DNA of 64,000 nucleotides. Origin: an uncultured Candidatus Saccharibacteria bacterium. GTDB taxonomy: Bacteria > Patescibacteriota > Minisyncoccia > Phycocordibacterales > UBA9973. Position numbers and translations under genes: made by a program. The notes under the pieces were generated by a model. It made no database searches, was not told the DNA's origin, and saw only the letters and a program-made list of their open reading frames with translations. Shown here piece by piece: positions 6,755 to 64,000 of this stretch (position 1 is its first letter; each line of letters opens with the position of its first letter). The stretch is from assembly GCA_964527235.1 (NCBI GenBank), contig CAZGNC010000002.1:14275-78274 (forward strand), in the 5' to 3' direction.

Positions 6755-6837
6755 GCTAAATAAGTATACCTTATCTCAAAAGCAAACAACACCCCTCTCG
6801 AGGTGTTTTGTTTGCTTTGTTTATATTTAAGTAAATA

Positions 6838-17745: not shown

Positions 17746-18816
17746 TTATCCTAACTTTTTTTTAATCTCTTGTGCAAGTAATGGGTTCCACATGGCGCCC
17801 GTCGCAGACATCACGAAGTCTGCTCCAGCATCACGGTATTCGAAGAAATCTTCTGGGTCAGTAACACCGCCAACGCCTATGATTTGATAGGTTAAATTTA
17901 AATCCTCACGTAACTTTTTTAATTTTTTAACCATCTCGAGCCCTGCCCATTTAATAGCGTGACCACACAGTCCACTCACAGCCCTGCCCTCCCCAGGCAG
18001 GGCTTGGTTGCCTTCCTCGTCGGTGACCTTAGCTGGCAGAGTATTTATCGAAGCATAAGCCTGCACAAAAGGGCTTGTTTCTTTTATTAAATTTTTTAAC
18101 GCTTCATCGTCAGCAAAGTATGCAATCTTGGCTATTAGCGGGATAGGACCAATCTCTTTTTTGATCGCTTGCAATATTTGCTTAGTTCTTTCAGTGTCGA
18201 AACAAAGCAGATGCGCCGAGCCTTCGTTGGGACAACTTAAATTCACCTCCATGACTTTCACAGATGTTTCCTTTAGAAGCTTGGCACAAAGGGCAAAGTC
18301 TGCAATATATGCTTGCGCGTTTCCCTTCTCCCAGGATGTCCCCTGAAAGCTCCCCACCACGACCTGCCCGTGGCGGGCATAACGAACCGCATCAGATAAA
18401 TCTTTCTGCCAGAATTCTGGGTCAAACGACGGTACCCCGAAAGAATTCGTAATGAGCTCGGGCGTACCAGAACTATCTTTATCTACCACCACACCCTGTT
18501 TCATCTTCTCAAGCGTTAGATCACCTTCTATCTTCACAGACAAAACATTGGGCCACGGATGGCATGGATACTTCCCCGAGCGCACTGTTTTATAAATAGG
18601 AATATCGAAGCCCTTATCAAGTGCACCTTTTACGAATTTGCCATTCAGTAGCGGACCGGCTGGAATACCAAAAGGAGAATTCACTTCGAATCCTAGAAAA
18701 TTATATTTGTGTTCTTCTGTATTATCGAAAACTTTCTTATCAGCAAAAATACCAAAAGGCCCTTGATTGAAATTATCTTCGTATGATTTCTCGGGGTCGT
18801 AAAAAGGGGTAAGCAT
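17746..18816 (-). CDS. pyrD: dihydroorotate dehydrogenase-like flavoenzyme
   Basis: TIM-barrel DHODH motifs (NSPFGIPAG, NLSCPN, GGV...D). Adjacent to pyrE and pyrF. Confidence 0.65.
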   Translation of the reverse strand: MLTPFYDPEKSYEDNFNQGPFGIFADKKVFDNTEEHKYNFLGFEVNSPFGIPAGPLLNGKFVKGALDKGFDIPIYKTVRSGKYPCHPWPNVLSVKIEGDLTLEKMKQGVVVDKDSSGTPELITNSFGVPSFDPEFWQKDLSDAVRYARHGQVVVGSFQGTSWEKGNAQAYIADFALCAKLLKETSVKVMEVNLSCPNEGSAHLLCFDTERTKQILQAIKKEIGPIPLIAKIAYFADDEALKNLIKETSPFVQAYASINTLPAKVTDEEGNQALPGEGRAVSGLCGHAIKWAGLEMVKKLKKLREDLNLTYQIIGVGGVTDPEDFFEYRDAGADFVMSATGAMWNPLLAQEIKKKLG

Positions 18817-21848: not shown

Positions 21849-22451
21849 CTACCACATCAACGCCCTCCACAAAAAACCACCAAAGAACCACCAAAGAAGC
21901 AATAAAACAATTAGAAGAGTACCTATAGACCTAGAAGACATATTGAATCTTTGCAATACATCCTTATGCTCTCTATCTAAACAAGTAGCCACCACCAAGA
22001 AAGACGAGAAAGCTATAATACCGATAGAACTGATGGCTTTACTTAGGACATCAGACTCTACCATATCCCAAATCGAAAGAATACCAATAAAAGCTAGAAC
22101 CGCTACTGCGGCGATAAAAACACCTATGGTTAACTTTCTTATTACAGAAAAAGCTGGATTTGGTAAGTTCGCAAGACTTGGGTCAGTCTCTGATTTACCA
22201 TCTAAGAAATGCCCAGCCACTACGACAACGACTGCCACTGCAGCCAACAAGCCAAGAGTTTGGAAAGATTTAGTTATAACATCTTTTCCAAATACATCCC
22301 AAACACCAAAAACAGACACCACAGTAAGAACAACTACAGAAAGAATAAAAAACAAACCAGCACCATCTTGAATTTTCTTCATTTTATTGTGATTATTAAT
22401 AAAACTAACATTTTTATTATACAACAACGATAAAAAAACAAAAACTCCCAA
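21849..22451 (-). CDS. polytopic membrane protein, unknown function
   Basis: Five or six predicted TM helices. Inserted between rpsG and fusA. Confidence 0.4.
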   Translation of the reverse strand: MGVFVFLSLLYNKNVSFINNHNKMKKIQDGAGLFFILSVVVLTVVSVFGVWDVFGKDVITKSFQTLGLLAAVAVVVVVAGHFLDGKSETDPSLANLPNPAFSVIRKLTIGVFIAAVAVLAFIGILSIWDMVESDVLSKAISSIGIIAFSSFLVVATCLDREHKDVLQRFNMSSRSIGTLLIVLLLLWWFFGGFLWRALMW

Positions 22452-22489
22452 CTGGGAGCTTTTGTTTTTTAAATTTATTTAAATTGAAC

Positions 22490-24439: not shown

Positions 24440-24826
24440 ATGCCTGAAGGACTCAATACAACCAACGAAAGACAAAGAAATATTGAAGTTTTTACTGATC
24501 AAGCTCTGGAGGTCTTTAAAGGAAGACTGGCTGGAAGGTCATTTTCCCTGTCTCATGTAGGTGGAGAATACGGCGATACAAATGTAACTGTAGTCCCAGA
24601 CAAGAAAAACCCAGGCCAAGCACTCTGGGACAACACCTCTCCAGATTTTTTATATGTTAAAAGAAAAGACAAAGAAAACTCTGGTTCAATTTCTTTAAAC
24701 AACATACTGGTATCCCCTGAGGCAGAGGACCAGATCTCAATAATACTAAAAGAGATGAAAATTCCTCCAGGCATGCAAGAAGAAGTTAAAAAACAAATTA
24801 AAAAAGATTACCCTCCTTTAAACTAA
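24440..24826 (+). CDS. hypothetical protein
   Basis: 128 aa, co-directional with rpmB. No recognisable motifs. Confidence 0.35.
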   Translation: MPEGLNTTNERQRNIEVFTDQALEVFKGRLAGRSFSLSHVGGEYGDTNVTVVPDKKNPGQALWDNTSPDFLYVKRKDKENSGSISLNNILVSPEAEDQISIILKEMKIPPGMQEEVKKQIKKDYPPLN

Positions 24827-24830
24827 ACTA

Positions 24831-24858
24831 AAAATCCCCCATATGGGGGATTTTTAGT
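24831..24858. terminator. bidirectional rho-independent terminator (aaaaatccccc atat gggggattttt)
   Basis: A perfect 10-bp stem flanked by A-run and T-run, between convergent genes. Confidence 0.6.
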
Positions 24859-24859
24859 T

Positions 24860-26089
24860 TTACGCAGGTACGAAAGTAAGCGCAGTGCCGGCTTTGCCAC
24901 TTCGGCCAGTTCGGCCTATGCGGTGTACATAAGTATCGTAAGTTTGAGGTACGTCGAAATTTATAACATGAGTCACATCTGGGATATCTAGACCTCTAGC
25001 AGCCACGTCTGTAGCAATCAATATATTTATTTTATCTTGCTTGAAAGAATCAAGTATTCGTAGACGTTCACGACTTCTCTTGTCACCATGAATGCCTCCT
25101 ACCTTGAACCCAGCCTGAGAAAGCTCTTTAGCTAGGGTATCAACACTGTGTTTCATCTCGCGGAAAATAAGAACTTTATCTGAGCCGTCTTTTTTCAATA
25201 CTTCATGAAGCTTGGCTATTTTCTCTTCTTTGGTTCTAGTACGGATGACGTCTTGGTCGATATTCTTAGCAGTCTCACCAGAAACTACAGATACGAAAAC
25301 TGGATCTTTCAAATACTCACTTGTTAACTTTTTAATCTCAGGAGAAAGAGTCGCTGAGAAGAAAAGAGTCTGGCGATCTTTCGCAGTCTTGCCGATAATG
25401 TAAACCATATCATCACGGAATCCCATGTCGAGCATACGATCTGCTTCATCAAGCACTACAGAATTACAAGTAGTTAAGTCTAAAACTTTGCGATCTATTA
25501 AATCTCGAAGTCTACCTGGGGTACCAATTACAAAAGAAACGCCCATTTTTATCTCACGAATTTGTTTCATTATTGGCAAACCTCCAACGCATGAAACTGA
25601 AAACATACCAAAACCAAAAGCGAGCTTCTTAAACTCTTCTTCTATTTGGATTGCTAATTCGCGAGTCGGTGCCATTATGAGCACTGTTTCCCTCTTGCTC
25701 TGACCTTTGGTCTTCGCAATTTTCTCAATCAAAGGAATTAGAAATGCTGCGGTTTTACCAGTACCGGTGTTCGCTAGACCAAATATATCCTTACCTGAGA
25801 TAGACACGGGTATAGACTGATCCTGAATAGGACGAGGTGCAGTGTAGCCAGCACGTGCTATGTTCTTGTGAAGTTGTTCACTTAAAGGAAAATCAGAAAA
25901 AGCATGCTTGGCAACGTATGGTCGCTCTGCAACTTGGACAGCCTTCTTAATAAAACGAGAAAAGTCTATCCTCTCTCCGCGAGATCGAGACCCTCCACTC
26001 CCTCCTCGGCCCTTAGGCTTGAAGCGAGATTTAAAATTAGTATTTGGACGTCCGAATTTAGACGGACGTGCCGGATGACGTGTGTACAT
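24860..26089 (-). CDS. DEAD-box ATP-dependent RNA helicase with an RG-rich N-terminal extension
   Basis: Q-motif, GTGKT (motif I), DEAD, SAT, HRIGRTGR (motif VI). Confidence 0.9.
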   Translation of the reverse strand: MYTRHPARPSKFGRPNTNFKSRFKPKGRGGSGGSRSRGERIDFSRFIKKAVQVAERPYVAKHAFSDFPLSEQLHKNIARAGYTAPRPIQDQSIPVSISGKDIFGLANTGTGKTAAFLIPLIEKIAKTKGQSKRETVLIMAPTRELAIQIEEEFKKLAFGFGMFSVSCVGGLPIMKQIREIKMGVSFVIGTPGRLRDLIDRKVLDLTTCNSVVLDEADRMLDMGFRDDMVYIIGKTAKDRQTLFFSATLSPEIKKLTSEYLKDPVFVSVVSGETAKNIDQDVIRTRTKEEKIAKLHEVLKKDGSDKVLIFREMKHSVDTLAKELSQAGFKVGGIHGDKRSRERLRILDSFKQDKINILIATDVAARGLDIPDVTHVINFDVPQTYDTYVHRIGRTGRSGKAGTALTFVPA

Positions 26090-53269: not shown

Positions 53270-53341
53270 GCCCTCATAGTTCAATGGATAGAATGCGAGC
53301 TTGCGGAGTTTGCGATGTAGGTTCGATTCCTACTGAGGGCA
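53270..53341 (+). tRNA. tRNA-Arg (anticodon tentatively GCG; the anticodon stem needs two G-U pairs)
   Basis: gccctca ta gttc aatggata gaat g cgagc uuGCGga gtttg cgat gtagg ttcgatt cctac tgagggc a. Confidence 0.5.
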
Positions 53342-53415
53342 CAAAATAACAAAATACCCAGTTTCTGGGATTTTTAGAACTATAAAATATAATAAAAATT
53401 CCTCTCTACAGATAC

Positions 53416-53444: not shown

Positions 53445-53513
53445 CACGAAAGATCCTAAGTGGGGCACCCTGCCCTAATGAACCTTGATTTATGCCCTCC
53501 GAGGGGGCAAAAT

Positions 53514-54296
53514 ATGTGGCTGATCAAGATGCTAGCATTCTGCTTCCTTTGGGCCATCATGGCCGCAGAGGAAGGGCTCCGCCTAGTGGCGGACGCCCTG
53601 AAGGAGTCCTTCGGGACGGCGCTTCTGGGGAGGAAAAACGTACCGTTCTTGGTGTTGGCGCTCATCCTGAGCACAACCCAGCTCGAGGCGCAAGCACCCC
53701 GACGGACCGCAGACAACTCTGTAACCCCCCAGTGCAACCTGGGGACCGACTGGTCGGTCAACAAAAACCGCCCCGTTGCTTCCGACGAGAAGCTCTACCG
53801 CCTCGAAGGCGGTCCCGCCATCGTCGCCCAGCGCGAAGCACCCGGATCGACGCACATCGTCTACCGGCGATGCAATGTACCCCCAGGAACCGAAGCGTAC
53901 TGCAGCATCAGAGGCTGCTGGATCAAGGTCTGTGGCAACGACCTTGGTTCTCCTGAAGGATGGAAGTTCCCCATCGAAATACCGATGGGAGCGCCTGGAG
54001 TGAACGGGCGCGACGGGAAGGATGGACGAGATGGCCGTGATGGACAGATCGTCTACGCTCCCCCTGCATCGACCGCCCTAGTGCCAGACTTCGACGGACG
54101 ATACAAGGTCCGCGGGGATAGGGGCTTCTGGTGTTTCCGTGGTGCAGGTCAAGGTGCATTTTGCACCGCGATCGCCACCACAGCGGTCCTTGTGGCCAAG
54201 AACAACCTGCCACGAAAGGATGACGAGCCCAAGGGCGGCAAGCCCATCGTCGTAACCCTCCCCAACACAATCCTGATGGCGCTGTTGGGTCGATAA
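53514..54296 (+). CDS. GC-rich (about 58% GC) secreted protein with a short collagen-like Gly-X-Y run and several Cys; unknown function
   Basis: Hydrophobic N-terminus MWLIKMLAFCFLWAIMAA. GAPGVNGRDGKDGRDGRDGQ gives six triplets. The start is chosen at the SD-preceded ATG rather than the longer ORF-track start. Confidence 0.45.
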   Translation: MWLIKMLAFCFLWAIMAAEEGLRLVADALKESFGTALLGRKNVPFLVLALILSTTQLEAQAPRRTADNSVTPQCNLGTDWSVNKNRPVASDEKLYRLEGGPAIVAQREAPGSTHIVYRRCNVPPGTEAYCSIRGCWIKVCGNDLGSPEGWKFPIEIPMGAPGVNGRDGKDGRDGRDGQIVYAPPASTALVPDFDGRYKVRGDRGFWCFRGAGQGAFCTAIATTAVLVAKNNLPRKDDEPKGGKPIVVTLPNTILMALLGR

Positions 54297-54414
54297 CATC
54301 TTGCAGGAGGTTGAGTACTGGAAAGGACTCATCTTCCTGTACTCTTCAAAGTTATGAGAACAAAGTCATGATTTTGAAGAGTAAAATATTAGTTTTACTT
54401 TTAATTAAATTATT

Positions 54415-57504: not shown

Positions 57505-57520
57505 TTAACTCGAAAATAAA

Positions 57521-57548
57521 AACACCCCGATGAGGGGTGTTTTTATTT
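57521..57548. terminator. bidirectional terminator (aacaccccgatgaggggtgtt plus T-run)
   Basis: 8-bp stem with flanking A-run and T-run, between convergent genes. Confidence 0.55.
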
Positions 57549-57573
57549 TGTTTAATTTTTTTCAAGCAGTCGT

Positions 57574-60346: not shown

Positions 60347-61609
60347 CTACTTGGTCAAAAAGTTTTTATTTCGCATATCTTTATGGTACGCGATAGCGAA
60401 TCTGTGGGCCTCACTGTTGGCTAAAAGTATCGCACCCTGGTGTTGTAGTGCAAGAACTCGAGACCCCAGAACACTCTTTGGCCTGTGACGTTCATCTTTC
60501 AGAACCGAAACAATATTTATATCAAACCCAGACTTCTCTATCGCCTTCTTGGCGACATTCATCTGAGCAACTCCCCCGTCTACAACCACGAGGTCAGGAG
60601 TACGCCACTCAGGGTGGTTGAACCTTCGCTCTAGAACTTCAGACAGGGCGCCTGTGTCGTTAGCCCCAGACTGTGTTCGAATCTTAAATTTTTTATACTC
60701 ACTTTTTACAGCGTTACCATTCTCTACTACTGTCATTACACCCACCATGTTCTTGCCCGACATGTGGGCAATATCATATGCCTCGATTCTAAACACCGAA
60801 GCCTGATACGACTGCCTATCAGAACGAAGTAGTGAAACATCGTTGATGTGACCCAGGGCAAATATCTGCCTCTTGATCTCAGAAGCCTTTTCGAACTCAC
60901 GAGCTTTAGCATACATAGCCATATCTTTCTTGAGGTTTTGTAAAATTTTCTTCTTCTTGCCTTGAAAGAATAAATTTATATTCTTGATATTCTCTTTGTA
61001 CATCTTTGTATCCTCCAAATCCGGCACCAGGTTTATCTGTCGGTAGAATTCTTCATAATTTTTACTCTTGTCATCCAGGAAAGGGAAAATCCTGCGGATA
61101 ATCTTTATCGCTTCTTTCAACTGCGCCCCATGAGGATAAGGGCCGTACACAGCGGAAAAATCAGAAAAATTCCGTCCGTGTCGGAGCCCGCTTGCGGGTA
61201 AAGCGGCGGAATTTTTCTGATTTTGAAGCCCTCTTTCACCCTCTAGCTCTTTACCTCTTTTTATTACCACTCTAGGTAAAGCCTCTTTGGTAATGCAAAC
61301 ATAATTAAAACTTTTATCTGACTTTTCTTTAGTGTTGTATTTAGGCTGGTACCTTTTTATAAGTTCTGCTTCTAGTATTAAAGCCTCGAGCACACTGTCG
61401 GTCTCTTCCCACCTTATATTGTCAGACTTGAAAACCATATCGAGGATCACAGGCCCTCGGGTTTCGATAAGGTCTTTGCTGAAATAACTTTTCACCCGAC
61501 TTTTAAGCTCGGTGGCTTTACCAATATATAGAATTTCTTTACCCTTCTTCCAGAAATACACCCCTGGCTTGCTTGGAATTTTAAGTTTTTTTAAATCCCC
61601 TAGTTTCAT
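60347..61609 (-). CDS. uvrC: excinuclease ABC subunit C, short form (GIY-YIG plus UvrBC-interaction plus RNase H-like endonuclease domain; no C-terminal HhH)
   Basis: GIY-YIG N-terminus (PGVYFWKKGKEILYIGKA...). Contains an in-frame palindromic insertion at 61157-61224. Confidence 0.7.
   Translation of the reverse strand: MKLGDLKKLKIPSKPGVYFWKKGKEILYIGKATELKSRVKSYFSKDLIETRGPVILDMVFKSDNIRWEETDSVLEALILEAELIKRYQPKYNTKEKSDKSFNYVCITKEALPRVVIKRGKELEGERGLQNQKNSAALPASGLRHGRNFSDFSAVYGPYPHGAQLKEAIKIIRRIFPFLDDKSKNYEEFYRQINLVPDLEDTKMYKENIKNINLFFQGKKKKILQNLKKDMAMYAKAREFEKASEIKRQIFALGHINDVSLLRSDRQSYQASVFRIEAYDIAHMSGKNMVGVMTVVENGNAVKSEYKKFKIRTQSGANDTGALSEVLERRFNHPEWRTPDLVVVDGGVAQMNVAKKAIEKSGFDINIVSVLKDERHRPKSVLGSRVLALQHQGAILLANSEAHRFAIAYHKDMRNKNFLTK
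61157..61224. repeat. 68-bp GC-rich palindromic element (18-bp perfect inverted arms around a 32-bp GC core) inserted in-frame in uvrC
   Basis: Arms aaaatcagaaaaattccg / cggaatttttctgatttt. Core tccgtgtcggagcccgcttgcgggtaaagcgg. Encodes ...LQNQKNSAALPASGLRHGRNFSDF... Confidence 0.55.
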
Positions 61610-61610
61610 T

Positions 61611-64000
61611 TTATTTTCGTAAAACTTTTTTCAGATATTTACCTGTATAACTTTTACTATTCCCGGCTACGTCTTCGGGGGTACCTTTCGCCACCAAGTT
61701 GCCACCCTCTATTCCCCCCTCAGGACCAAAGTCTACCAGGTAGTCTGAACTTTTAACTACATCTAGGTTGTGTTCTATAAGCACCACAGTGTTGCCTTTC
61801 GTTACAAGTTTATTCAGAACTTCAAGAAGCTTCTGTACATCATCATAGTGTAGCCCCACGGTTGGCTCATCAAGAAGATATATAGTTTTCTCTAAATGCG
61901 GACGATAAAGCTCACTAGAAATTTTTACGCGCTGAGCTTCTCCACCCGAGAGTGTGGTAGCTGGCTGACCAAGCTCTAAATACCCAAGCCCCACATCCAT
62001 CAATGTTTCCAAGCGATCAGAAATCGCTGGGATATCTTTGAAGAATTTGAGCCCTTCTTCGACAGTCATCTTTAGAACTTCATGAATGTTTTTCTTCTTG
62101 TATTTTACTGTTAGGGTTTCCTTATCGAAACGCTTACCCTGGCACACATCACAAGTCACATACACTGTCGGCAAGAAATGCATTTCTACTGCTATCTCAC
62201 CGTTCCCCTCACAAGCTTCACAGCGTCCACCTTTAACATTGAAAGAAAATCTGTTTATCTTCCAGCCACGTAGTCGCGCCTCTTCAGTCGCCGCAAAAAG
62301 ATCTCTAATGTGAGAGAATGCTCCCGTGTATGTCACCAAGTTAGACCTCGGGGTGCGCCCTATCGGAGACTGGTCAATGAGTATTACTCTCGAGACATAC
62401 TCGGCCCCAGTGAAAGTCGCACAGTTAAATGTCTGCGCTGATCGATACTTTCTCTCAAGACGTGCTTGTAAATTCTTGTAAAGAATTTCATACATGAAAG
62501 AACTCTTGCCAGAGCCAGAGACTCCAGTTATAGAAGTCATAACCCCCAACGGAATTTCTATATTTAAATTTTTTATATTGAAAACTTTCCCCCCAGTTAC
62601 CCTTAGCACTCCCTTACCCTCGCGGCGCTTTTCTGGAACTGGAATTTTTGCTTCTTCACGTAGGTATGCCAAGGTTCTAGAATTGCTAACATTCTTTTTA
62701 GCTGTTAGTAGTTCCTCTAAATCCCCAGCAACCACCACCTGCCCTCCATGTACGCCGGCTTTTGGGCCAATGTCTACGATGTAGTCAGATGCATATATAG
62801 TGTCCTCGTCGTGCTCAACAACCAGAATTGTATTCCCTAGGTCACGAAGGTTTAGAAGTGTTTTTATCAGGCGGTCGTTATCCCTCTGGTGAAGACCGAT
62901 AGTCGGCTCGTCTAGCACGTACAGAGCCCCGACCAAGCGAGACCCGAGCTGAGAGGCAAGCCTGATGCGCTGGGCTTCCCCTCCTGAAAGTGTGTTGGCC
63001 TTACGAGAGAGCTGAAGGTAATCAAGCCCCACATCTAACATAAACTGCAGACGTGCTTCTATCTCCTTGACTACTGGCAAAGAGATTTCTTTCTCCTGAG
63101 AAGAGAGTTTAAGATTTTTAAAAAACTCTGTCGCATCCGCGATAGAAAGGGATGCTAAATCTAAAATATTCTTCCTTATCTGTCCTGTACTAATAAAAAC
63201 ATTTAATGCCTCAGATCGAAGTCTCGCCCCATGACATGCATCACAGAGTTCTTCCCCTCCGAAATATTTGGTGCCCAGACCATTGCAGACAGGGCATGCT
63301 CCATAAGGAGAGTTGAAAGAAAATAATCTCGGCTCAACTTCGGGAAAAGAAAATCCATCATTCTTGCAAGCAAACTTTGCTGACATTACGAATTCATCTT
63401 CTCCTATTTTAACCTGCACCAAGCCATCAGACTCTATGAGCGCTCGCTCAAGAGCTTCAGCAAGTCTCGCTCTACCTGTTTCTTTGTTGTCATTTAATTC
63501 ATGTACGGCAAAACGATCCACCACAACATCGATATTGTGCGCTTTGTTCTTCGATAGGGTTATCTGCTCGCGCAGTTTCTTGATATTGCCATCCAGGCGA
63601 ACCTCAGAAAATCCTTTGCCGAGTAAATCATACAGCAGCTGATAATACTCCCCTTTACGCCCGCGGACCACGGGAGCAAGTATCATTATCTCAGTTTCAT
63701 CCCACTCTACTCCCATAACTTTCCTTACTTTTGTTTTTGAATTTTGTAAAGAAGAATTCTGTGAACCGTCGTAGGTTGAAGAATTCTTCTTTACAATTTT
63801 TTCCTCGATTTTAATCTTCTCTAAAATAAAATTTAATATTTCTTCATTAGAAAGTTTCTTGATTTCTTCTCCACACTCTGGGCAATGCGGGTGCCCGATA
63901 CGCGCATACATAACGCGCAGGTAATCATAAATCTCTGTAATGGTCGCAACAGTTGAACGCGGATTATTCGAACGAGATTTCTGATCGATAGATATAGCTG
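61611..64000 (-). CDS. uvrA: excinuclease ABC subunit A, N-terminus beyond the window
   Basis: The reading frame continues upstream of the ORF-track Met (...VATITEIYDYLRVMYARIG matches the UvrA ITEIYDYLRLLYARVG motif). Tandem ABC ATPase modules and zinc fingers. Confidence 0.9.
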   Translation of the reverse strand, partial: AISIDQKSRSNNPRSTVATITEIYDYLRVMYARIGHPHCPECGEEIKKLSNEEILNFILEKIKIEEKIVKKNSSTYDGSQNSSLQNSKTKVRKVMGVEWDETEIMILAPVVRGRKGEYYQLLYDLLGKGFSEVRLDGNIKKLREQITLSKNKAHNIDVVVDRFAVHELNDNKETGRARLAEALERALIESDGLVQVKIGEDEFVMSAKFACKNDGFSFPEVEPRLFSFNSPYGACPVCNGLGTKYFGGEELCDACHGARLRSEALNVFISTGQIRKNILDLASLSIADATEFFKNLKLSSQEKEISLPVVKEIEARLQFMLDVGLDYLQLSRKANTLSGGEAQRIRLASQLGSRLVGALYVLDEPTIGLHQRDNDRLIKTLLNLRDLGNTILVVEHDEDTIYASDYIVDIGPKAGVHGGQVVVAGDLEELLTAKKNVSNSRTLAYLREEAKIPVPEKRREGKGVLRVTGGKVFNIKNLNIEIPLGVMTSITGVSGSGKSSFMYEILYKNLQARLERKYRSAQTFNCATFTGAEYVSRVILIDQSPIGRTPRSNLVTYTGAFSHIRDLFAATEEARLRGWKINRFSFNVKGGRCEACEGNGEIAVEMHFLPTVYVTCDVCQGKRFDKETLTVKYKKKNIHEVLKMTVEEGLKFFKDIPAISDRLETLMDVGLGYLELGQPATTLSGGEAQRVKISSELYRPHLEKTIYLLDEPTVGLHYDDVQKLLEVLNKLVTKGNTVVLIEHNLDVVKSSDYLVDFGPEGGIEGGNLVAKGTPEDVAGNSKSYTGKYLKKVLRK

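Follow-up and report, generated by a model that had tools for sequence, protein, structure and literature searches.

Palindromic repeats carried in frame within protein-coding genes are, to our knowledge, documented mainly in Rickettsia, where the Rickettsia palindromic elements (RPEs) are reportedly divided into families RPE-1 to RPE-8 (said to date from work by Ogata et al. in 2000 and 2002), and we know of no enzyme that moves even these repeats. RPEs are 100-150 bp long and abundant in intergenic as well as coding regions, and one RPE-7-like insert is described in PheT (PMC1779305); they have also been listed at about 105-146 bp, with internal in-frame fusions noted (PMC3184786). The present analysis concerns a palindromic insert in the uvrC gene of a 64,000-nucleotide (64-kb) stretch of contig CAZGNC010000002.1, referred to here as the window, together with related sequences from other genomes. 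The insert is almost certainly a member of a dispersed palindromic repeat family of Paceibacteria/Nomurabacteria, with the RPE as the closest known kind of element. Copies of the family occur at many non-homologous loci, form a long hairpin, and are found as in-frame, stop-free insertions that are absent from orthologues. Both groups are interspersed short palindromic repeats of intergenic and coding regions; they lie in frame in the housekeeping genes of bacteria with small genomes, where translation makes extra loops of them, and they have proliferated in particular lineages and lack an identified transposase. The family described here differs in occurring in Patescibacteria rather than Alphaproteobacteria, in being shorter (about 70-100 bp), in having a conserved central loop and apical-stem base flanked by variable arms with compensated changes, and in the reuse of the same host site by different subfamilies and in both orientations. 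Homology to RPE-1 to RPE-8, which were set beside the family by description, is unlikely since they belong to another phylum.

An inverted-repeat search of the window recovers in uvrC two 18-nt arms that are 100% complementary around a GC-rich spacing of 32 nt, as an earlier sequence-only reading of this DNA had described (Table 1). On the sense (minus) strand of the uvrC open reading frame (ORF) the element is in frame and free of stop codons, and its encoded peptide, LQNQKNSAALPASGLRHGRNFSDF, begins at UvrC residue 128 and is therefore located in the linker after the GIY-YIG domain; the placement proposed by that reading agrees with both the ORF and the positions of the Pfam domains. The match to R2, a covariance model built from aligned family copies, covers model positions 1-92 of 92, and on this match the homologous element is slightly longer than the perfect arms. 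The core is of the GCAAGC-loop subfamily and is found unchanged in 16 other copies from other genes and samples. When the window was searched for the 18-nt arm, with up to 3 mismatches allowed, only the two arms themselves matched and there was no third site; the chance expectation is 0.14 and two matches were reached in 0 of 100 shuffles. The Logan assembly of run SRR14271372 (L001), which probably represents the same reads processed by a second assembler, is identical to the window across 4 kb or more, with the element included, so that two assemblies agree across the site. The UvrC of this clade is short, with homologues of about 393-459 aa (the window protein and P0002-P0120). Canonical UvrC has about 600 residues and a C-terminal HhH domain; a Pfam search of the window protein returned only the GIY-YIG, UVR, and RNase H-like domains, with no match to HhH. 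In an AlphaFold2 (AF2) model of UvrC based on a 20-sequence alignment, which is weak overall (mean predicted local distance difference test score, pLDDT, 63.9), residues 127-148 are among the least confident. The linker is variable in length and a close relative has no insert, from which it seems most likely that the insert is neutral baggage with no effect on UvrC.

The conserved part of the family is its centre, which consists of GCTTTACCC, a variable apical stem-loop, and then GGGCTCCGACACG. It forms an asymmetric internal loop, with GCTTTA on one side and CTCCGACACG on the other, capped by a CCC/GGG-based apical stem of variable length. The arms, each of about 20 nt, vary between copies yet remain Watson-Crick complementary. 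In an alignment of 31 copies, variation is concentrated in the arms and the centre hardly changes; 93.1% of arm cells are paired, compared with 69.9% after shuffling of columns (0 of 500 shuffles reached the observed 93.1%) and 34-54% with the 3' partners displaced by sliding; changes on both sides are found in 18 of 24 pairs, with 171 compensated cells, and covariation scores 0.597, the shuffles giving 0.161. A core regular expression combined with R2 identifies about 45 distinct copies in 1.37 Mb surrounding the uvrC genes of 84 relatives. The combined core pattern places copies in uvrA, in other genes, and at further points of uvrC itself, all of them in long stop-free ORFs, and a scan of metagenome contigs for the exact pattern gives matches in at least 120 stretches. 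A scan of viral contigs gave no match, and a phage vector for the family was rejected on that basis. The check on further copies of the arm, as the sequence-only reading had framed it, has two sides: the window contains none, but family copies are dispersed in the genes of relatives. The central 58 nt of the window copy recurs in L156, L095, and L195 with a single compensated pair changed (TTCTGCC...GGACAGAA versus TTCCGCC...GGACGGAA); the hosts of L156 and L095 cluster with that of L091, which has CCA-adding/poly(A) polymerase domains (Pfam). Some variants are specific to a genome: GCTTAACCC is present in the two copies of L047 and the two of L027, and CGACGGAGAATTC is common to all three L044 copies. 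To judge from these sequences, sharing of variants within genomes points to spread or homogenization inside them. A further subfamily or sister family has the core AATCGCTTATCCCTACCTCG...CGGCGCGCGCCCACRCCTACGATT and long arms, lies in frame in long ORFs, and has no copy in the window.

Homologues of the window UvrC come from sources that assign them to Paceibacterota, Nomurabacteria, or Patescibacteria; in an alignment of these proteins the segment between the motifs RGK.L and (F/Y)GP(Y/F) is patchily present and absent. In P0003/L082, whose UvrC is 88% identical to that of the window, the segment has 8 residues only and the site is effectively empty. P0002 and P0004 (87% and 84% identity, respectively) have about 30 residues of different sequence, representing another subfamily, at the same codon position, and in more distant relatives with lower UvrC identity the site is empty or filled by variants. 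An estimate of about 23 added residues had been made from the window alone; an insertion is indeed present, but the net gain relative to P0003, the closest empty relative (395 aa), is 25. Common to all variants of the insert are K/E-N-S/F-S close to one end and K/R/Q-N-F/S-S close to the opposite one. In DNA sequence, the window and L006 share arms CAGAAAAATTCCG / CG(G/A)AATTTTTCTG around CCGCTTTACCC-[loop]-GGGCTCCGACACGGA, whereas L083 and L084 have different, self-complementary arms, GAGAGCGAGAATTTTT / AAAAATTCTCGCTCTC, around a core that is recognizably homologous, GC(G/T)TTAACCC...GGGACC(C/T)ACACGA. The core of L086 is the exact reverse complement of that of L006; the two share position and arm consensus, and the inverted copies encode unrelated peptides (AALPSLRGLRHG versus VRVGAPVERVKRR). 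The comparison of relatives therefore shows that one codon position is, according to lineage, empty or occupied by subfamily A, by subfamily B, or by A inverted. The earlier proposal that a lineage-specific hairpin element had inserted without breaking the frame is upheld by this patchy occupancy and by the occurrence of the same sequence in unrelated genes. UvrC has another hot spot about 20 residues upstream, between ITK and E.LPKV, which in some relatives is occupied by a second, different family of GC-rich in-frame palindromes, CCTGCCCGCAATGCTT...GCATAGCGATGCAGGCGGG, encoding PARNA..SDAGG; the uvrC gene of the window has no copy of this family.

The window also contains a degenerate copy in uvrA. 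It has lost most of the core but retains perfect 17-nt arms that fit the family arm consensus GAAGAATTCTTC, and it is in frame and encodes KKNSSTYDGSQNSSLQNSK. The degenerate palindrome is present in the uvrA genes of L082 and L083 as well, and comparison of the arms of the window and L082 reveals compensated changes. L084, whose UvrC is 84% identical to that of the window, has a full copy of the GCAAGC type, with identical core, at the same position in uvrA.

Among the matches listed from the metagenome scan, 127 copies were assigned to hosts and orientations: 75 lie in the sense direction within ORFs of at least 100 aa, 8 are antisense in such ORFs, and 44 are outside long ORFs. The 83 genic copies fall into at least 32 clusters of host proteins. 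Pfam assignments of the hosts include UvrA, UvrC, DNA polymerase I (PolA), DprA, RNase HII, a tyrosine recombinase, class I aminoacyl-tRNA synthetase, queuine tRNA-ribosyltransferase (TGT), CCA-adding/poly(A) polymerase, MnmA, an RluA-type pseudouridine synthase, a type IV secretion system (T4SS) coupling protein, class V aminotransferase, the phosphoglycerate mutase iPGM, ClpP, GatB, a WecG-type glycosyltransferase, a tetratricopeptide repeat (TPR) protein, and ribosomal protein S16. Copies outside ORFs typically occupy the entire short spacer between two genes. In five spacers that were inspected, the upstream ORF has its own stop and the downstream ORF a proper ATG, so these are true spacers and the idea that such copies represent genes split by the element was ruled out for the five; one of the downstream ORFs we take, by eye, to be RpoC-like at its N terminus.

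The use of frame and orientation is far from even. The TAAA-loop type has a TAA stop in one sense frame, and all 20 of its 20 genic sense copies are in the frame SRFTLKGSD. The frame of the window copy, AALP..GLRHG, is found only with stop-free loops (GCAAGC, TCTCTACGG, and similar), and 12 of 12 sense-strand copies of the GCAAGC type are in one frame though other frames are open. Stop avoidance by itself would not demand so strict a use of frame, and an additional filter, for hydrophilic peptides that can be tolerated, is suggested. Of the spacer copies that separate co-directional genes, 21 are co-oriented with the genes and 5 opposed, and relative to the locally G-rich strand intergenic copies are distributed 15 to 4. 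Because the orientation bias extends to spacers, translation is not its sole cause; effects of the replication strand and the transcription strand are inseparable on these data.

Taken together, these properties are probably best explained by a palindromic DNA repeat that is selfish and non-autonomous and has become dispersed across the genomes of Paceibacteria. Under this explanation, the conserved loop would be recognized by a putative trans-acting enzyme, which would copy or move the element as folded single-stranded DNA. Genic copies would persist only when they are in frame, free of stops, and located in a tolerant surface loop or linker, and translation of those that persist would yield about 25-30 aa of hydrophilic peptide, here QKNS-AALPASGLRHG-RNFS. 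One such tolerant site would be the UvrC linker after GIY-YIG, reused repeatedly through loss, replacement of one subfamily by another, and inversion of the core. The combination of a conserved unpaired centre with variable stems that keep their pairing follows the logic of folded single-strand substrates, and by analogy with these it is possible, though offered tentatively, that the element moves as a folded single strand recognized through the conserved loop. Substrates of this type include the ends of IS200/IS605 insertion sequences and palindrome-associated transposable elements (PATEs), repetitive extragenic palindromic (REP) sequences with their REP-associated tyrosine transposases (RAYTs), and integron attC sites, all of which are recognized as a folded single strand. 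The resemblance is one of logic only and comprises variable paired stems, conserved unpaired bases, and strand-biased orientation; it differs in that no HUH/Y1 transposase, RAYT, or integrase is linked to the family, which also lacks the conserved GTAG/CGTC tag of REP sequences and the R-box of attC. Palindrome-associated elements derived from IS200/IS605 are moved by a Y1 (HUH) TnpA, which recognizes subterminal hairpins and inserts them strand-specifically beside a short target motif; the hints of such a route in the present family are indirect and consist of its biased orientation and its conserved loop with variable stems. REP sequences and bacterial interspersed mosaic elements (BIMEs) are extragenic imperfect palindromes of 20-40 nt with a GTAG or CGTC head (PMC3733652). 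Copies of the present family are 70-100 nt long, mostly intragenic, and without GTAG, and CGTC occurs on the opposite strand of some subfamilies only. A more far-reaching version of the proposal, which we regard as speculative and improbable, is that bacteria of the Candidate Phyla Radiation (CPR) have an as yet undiscovered system of single-strand DNA transposition or recombination that is specific to hairpins and uses the family as its substrate; it would recognize the conserved internal loop of the bottom strand and preferentially re-target existing copies or remnants. If so, re-targeting would explain the hot spots, the replacement of subfamilies, and inversion in place, and such a system would in effect keep reshaping the surface loops of essential proteins encoded by ultra-small genomes.

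The element had earlier been called MITE-like, after the MITEs (miniature inverted-repeat transposable elements), of which the bacterial examples, including Correia/NEMIS of Neisseria, RUP, and ERIC, have been reviewed (PMC3184786, PMC10969869). This holds to the extent that it is a small inserted palindrome, but it is not a textbook MITE because the window has no further copies of the arm and no target-site duplication was seen. Like MITEs, members of the family are small, lack coding capacity, contain inverted repeats, are present in many copies, and are occasionally fused in frame to ORFs. The differences are that the termini are the least conserved part, that most copies are intragenic, and that the arms, although inverted repeats, are the variable part, with no known parent insertion sequence (IS) having matching termini, though none was searched for exhaustively. 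Several of these points also weigh against an explanation by mobility. Target-site duplications were not seen at the flanks of copies or in the comparison of filled and empty uvrC sites; the flanks, GCTYC/GCAG...CTGC/TYCGC, are alike in all copies and therefore are apparently part of the element or reflect target preference, and their variable bases agree within a copy, by eye, in 4 of 10 cases, which is not above the chance level. No transposase or other mobilizing gene has been identified for the family, and conservation resides in the centre and not in the termini, unlike classical MITEs. The 64-kb window holds only one full and one degenerate copy, other matches to R2 within it being AT-rich terminator-like hairpins. 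Many genic copies are orthologous, so that the counts include non-independent events. The bias in orientation, both in genes and in spacers, and the near-exclusive use of frame are not obvious expectations for a purely neutral selfish element, and they could reflect function at the level of RNA or peptide, or strand-specific insertion.

A function in mRNA would make structure, and not mobility, the conserved property, with the hairpin acting as a processing site, for RNase III or otherwise, as an element of stability, or as a site of protein binding that tunes the expression of uvrC and other hosts. Transcripts of Correia elements form hairpins that are cut by RNase III, and an effect of this kind on uvrC had been suggested from the sequence alone. 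The possibility of a strong mRNA hairpin is borne out by the fold of the sense strand as RNA (-40.1 kcal/mol, z = -3.5 relative to shuffles), and the heavy covariation of the arms around a conserved internal loop, the sense bias in genes and co-directional spacers, and the frequency with which copies fill the whole spacer between co-transcribed genes are all in keeping with it. The mismatches in the arms are not. They were counted in 129 copies (loci L002-L206 and the window) on the core-sense strand, which is usually the mRNA sense, and the arm helices comprise 2476 Watson-Crick pairs, 15 G.T, 66 A.C, and 48 other mismatches; an excess of A.C is found in 45 non-redundant copies and an excess of G.T in 10 (sign test, p = 2e-6), the commonest mismatch being an A in the left arm opposite a C in the right. 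RNA helices under selection should tolerate G-U but not A.C, and the excess of A.C over G.T is thus the opposite of what would be expected for such a helix; the wobble-compatible form of these mismatches is on the complementary DNA strand. Moreover, the repeat occurs in both orientations at the same uvrC site, its host genes have no functional theme, and it matches no Rfam family, a scan of the window at the gathering threshold giving tRNAs only and a further scan giving a best E of 0.8, far below gathering scores. These comparisons favor a DNA-level element over a regulatory mRNA hairpin, which appears unlikely.

The near-exclusive use of one frame per subfamily, the hydrophilic nature of the peptides, and the position of the insert among the least confident segments of the weak AF2 model, which is compatible with a loop, would also fit a selected protein module, in which the peptide QKNS...RNFS, with N-x-S at both ends, provides a flexible, modifiable, or interacting loop. 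However, filtering for hydrophilic loops that are tolerated would produce the same bias in frame, the peptide of inverted copies at one and the same site is unrelated, one-third of the copies are outside long ORFs, and the close relative P0003 has no insert, so a role of this kind for the peptide is quite improbable. It should also be noted that perfect palindromes can arise through intrastrand template switching, which, together with the lack of any further copy of the 18-nt arm in the window, would be consistent with a local, non-mobile product, formed either by in situ expansion of the linker or as an artefact of assembly. This is scarcely credible given that the same 58-nt centre is present in unrelated genes from independent samples, that the two assemblies agree, and that orthologous and non-orthologous copies are present in dozens of metagenome-assembled genomes. 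Overall, the family is likely to be a selfish element acting at the level of DNA rather than a functional module of RNA or peptide.

No description of RPE-like elements or MITEs in Patescibacteria was found in the full-text literature, for which coverage was incomplete, and the family looks previously undescribed in CPR bacteria. Its distribution would mean that streamlined CPR genomes also tolerate selfish DNA in essential genes, including those for aminoacyl-tRNA synthetases, PolA, UvrA and UvrC, ClpP, and S16. The family would account for part of the length variation and odd low-complexity loops of CPR proteins, and it offers a marker for recent genome dynamics as well as a reason for caution in annotating and aligning the host proteins and in predicting their structures. 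The logic of its organization, with a conserved loop, covarying Watson-Crick arms, an asymmetry in mismatches, and reuse of a site in either orientation, provides a handle for finding the mobilizing enzyme.

Table 1. Coordinates of the uvrC element, related palindromes, and other features (window positions unless a locus is named)
Feature	Position	Strand	Details
Host gene, short UvrC (420 aa)	60347-61609	-	GIY-YIG 15-92, UVR 220-252, UvrC_RNaseH 271-406 (Pfam)
Full repeat copy in uvrC (degenerate outer arms, perfect arms, core)	61145-61236	-	Covariance model R2, 71.7 bits, E 8.6e-14
5' arm, sense strand	61207-61224	-	AAAATCAGAAAAATTCCG, 18 nt; translated within QNQKNS
Conserved core	61175-61206	-	Sense order: CC-GCTTTA (61204-61199), apical stem-loop CCCGCAAGCGGG (61198-61187), CTCCGACACG (61186-61177), GA
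3' arm, sense strand	61157-61174	-	CGGAATTTTTCTGATTTT, 18 nt; translated as RNFSDF
Degenerate second copy in uvrA, after zinc finger	63733-63807	-	R2, 33.4 bits, E 5e-5
Perfect 17-nt arms of uvrA copy	63744-63760, 63780-63796		
AATCGCTTATCCCTACCTCG...CGGCGCGCGCCCACRCCTACGATT group	L027 4841, L044 4095		
AATCGCTTATCCCTACCTCG...CGGCGCGCGCCCACRCCTACGATT group	L044 7833, L079 2391, L027 11332	-	
PARNA..SDAGG family in uvrC	L002 9968, L013 10316, L024 10301, L081 1001		
PARNA..SDAGG family, dispersed copies	L011 709, L014, L016 5552, L025, L029 1282, L092		
AT-rich near-perfect palindromes	24825-24860, 22433-22470, 6779-6818, 57513-57549		A-run, G/C block, T-run
GC-rich ORF (278 aa)	53460-54296		Separate ORF; collagen-like GRDGKDGRDGRDG stretch
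CCGCC/GGCGG hairpins	53.56-53.82 kb		Within the GC-rich ORF
R2 match at GC-rich stretch (noise level)	54292-54351		13 bits, E 2.3
tRNA-Arg	53270-53342		Adjoins the GC-rich ORF
GC-rich stretches in 356-aa ORF	17972-18013, 18347-18381		No R2 match

Other palindromic or GC-rich sequences of the window appear to be unrelated to the family. Its AT-rich near-perfect palindromes look like bidirectional intrinsic terminators and are non-members that give weak, generic-hairpin matches to R2. A kinship of the uvrC core with CCGCC...GGCGG "GC cassettes" had also been proposed in the sequence-only reading. These were taken to be the hairpins within the GC-rich ORF, in a genome that is 41% GC overall, and the proposal was rejected, since R2 finds nothing above noise there. 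This ORF may represent a foreign island integrated beside tRNA-Arg. R2 likewise finds no match in the GC-rich stretches of the 356-aa ORF, whose product we read as putatively like dihydroorotate dehydrogenase (DHODH). Nearly all 1-kb bins have a negative GC skew on the plus strand and the cumulative value declines steadily, reaching -7.7, so that the window appears to be contained in a single replichore.

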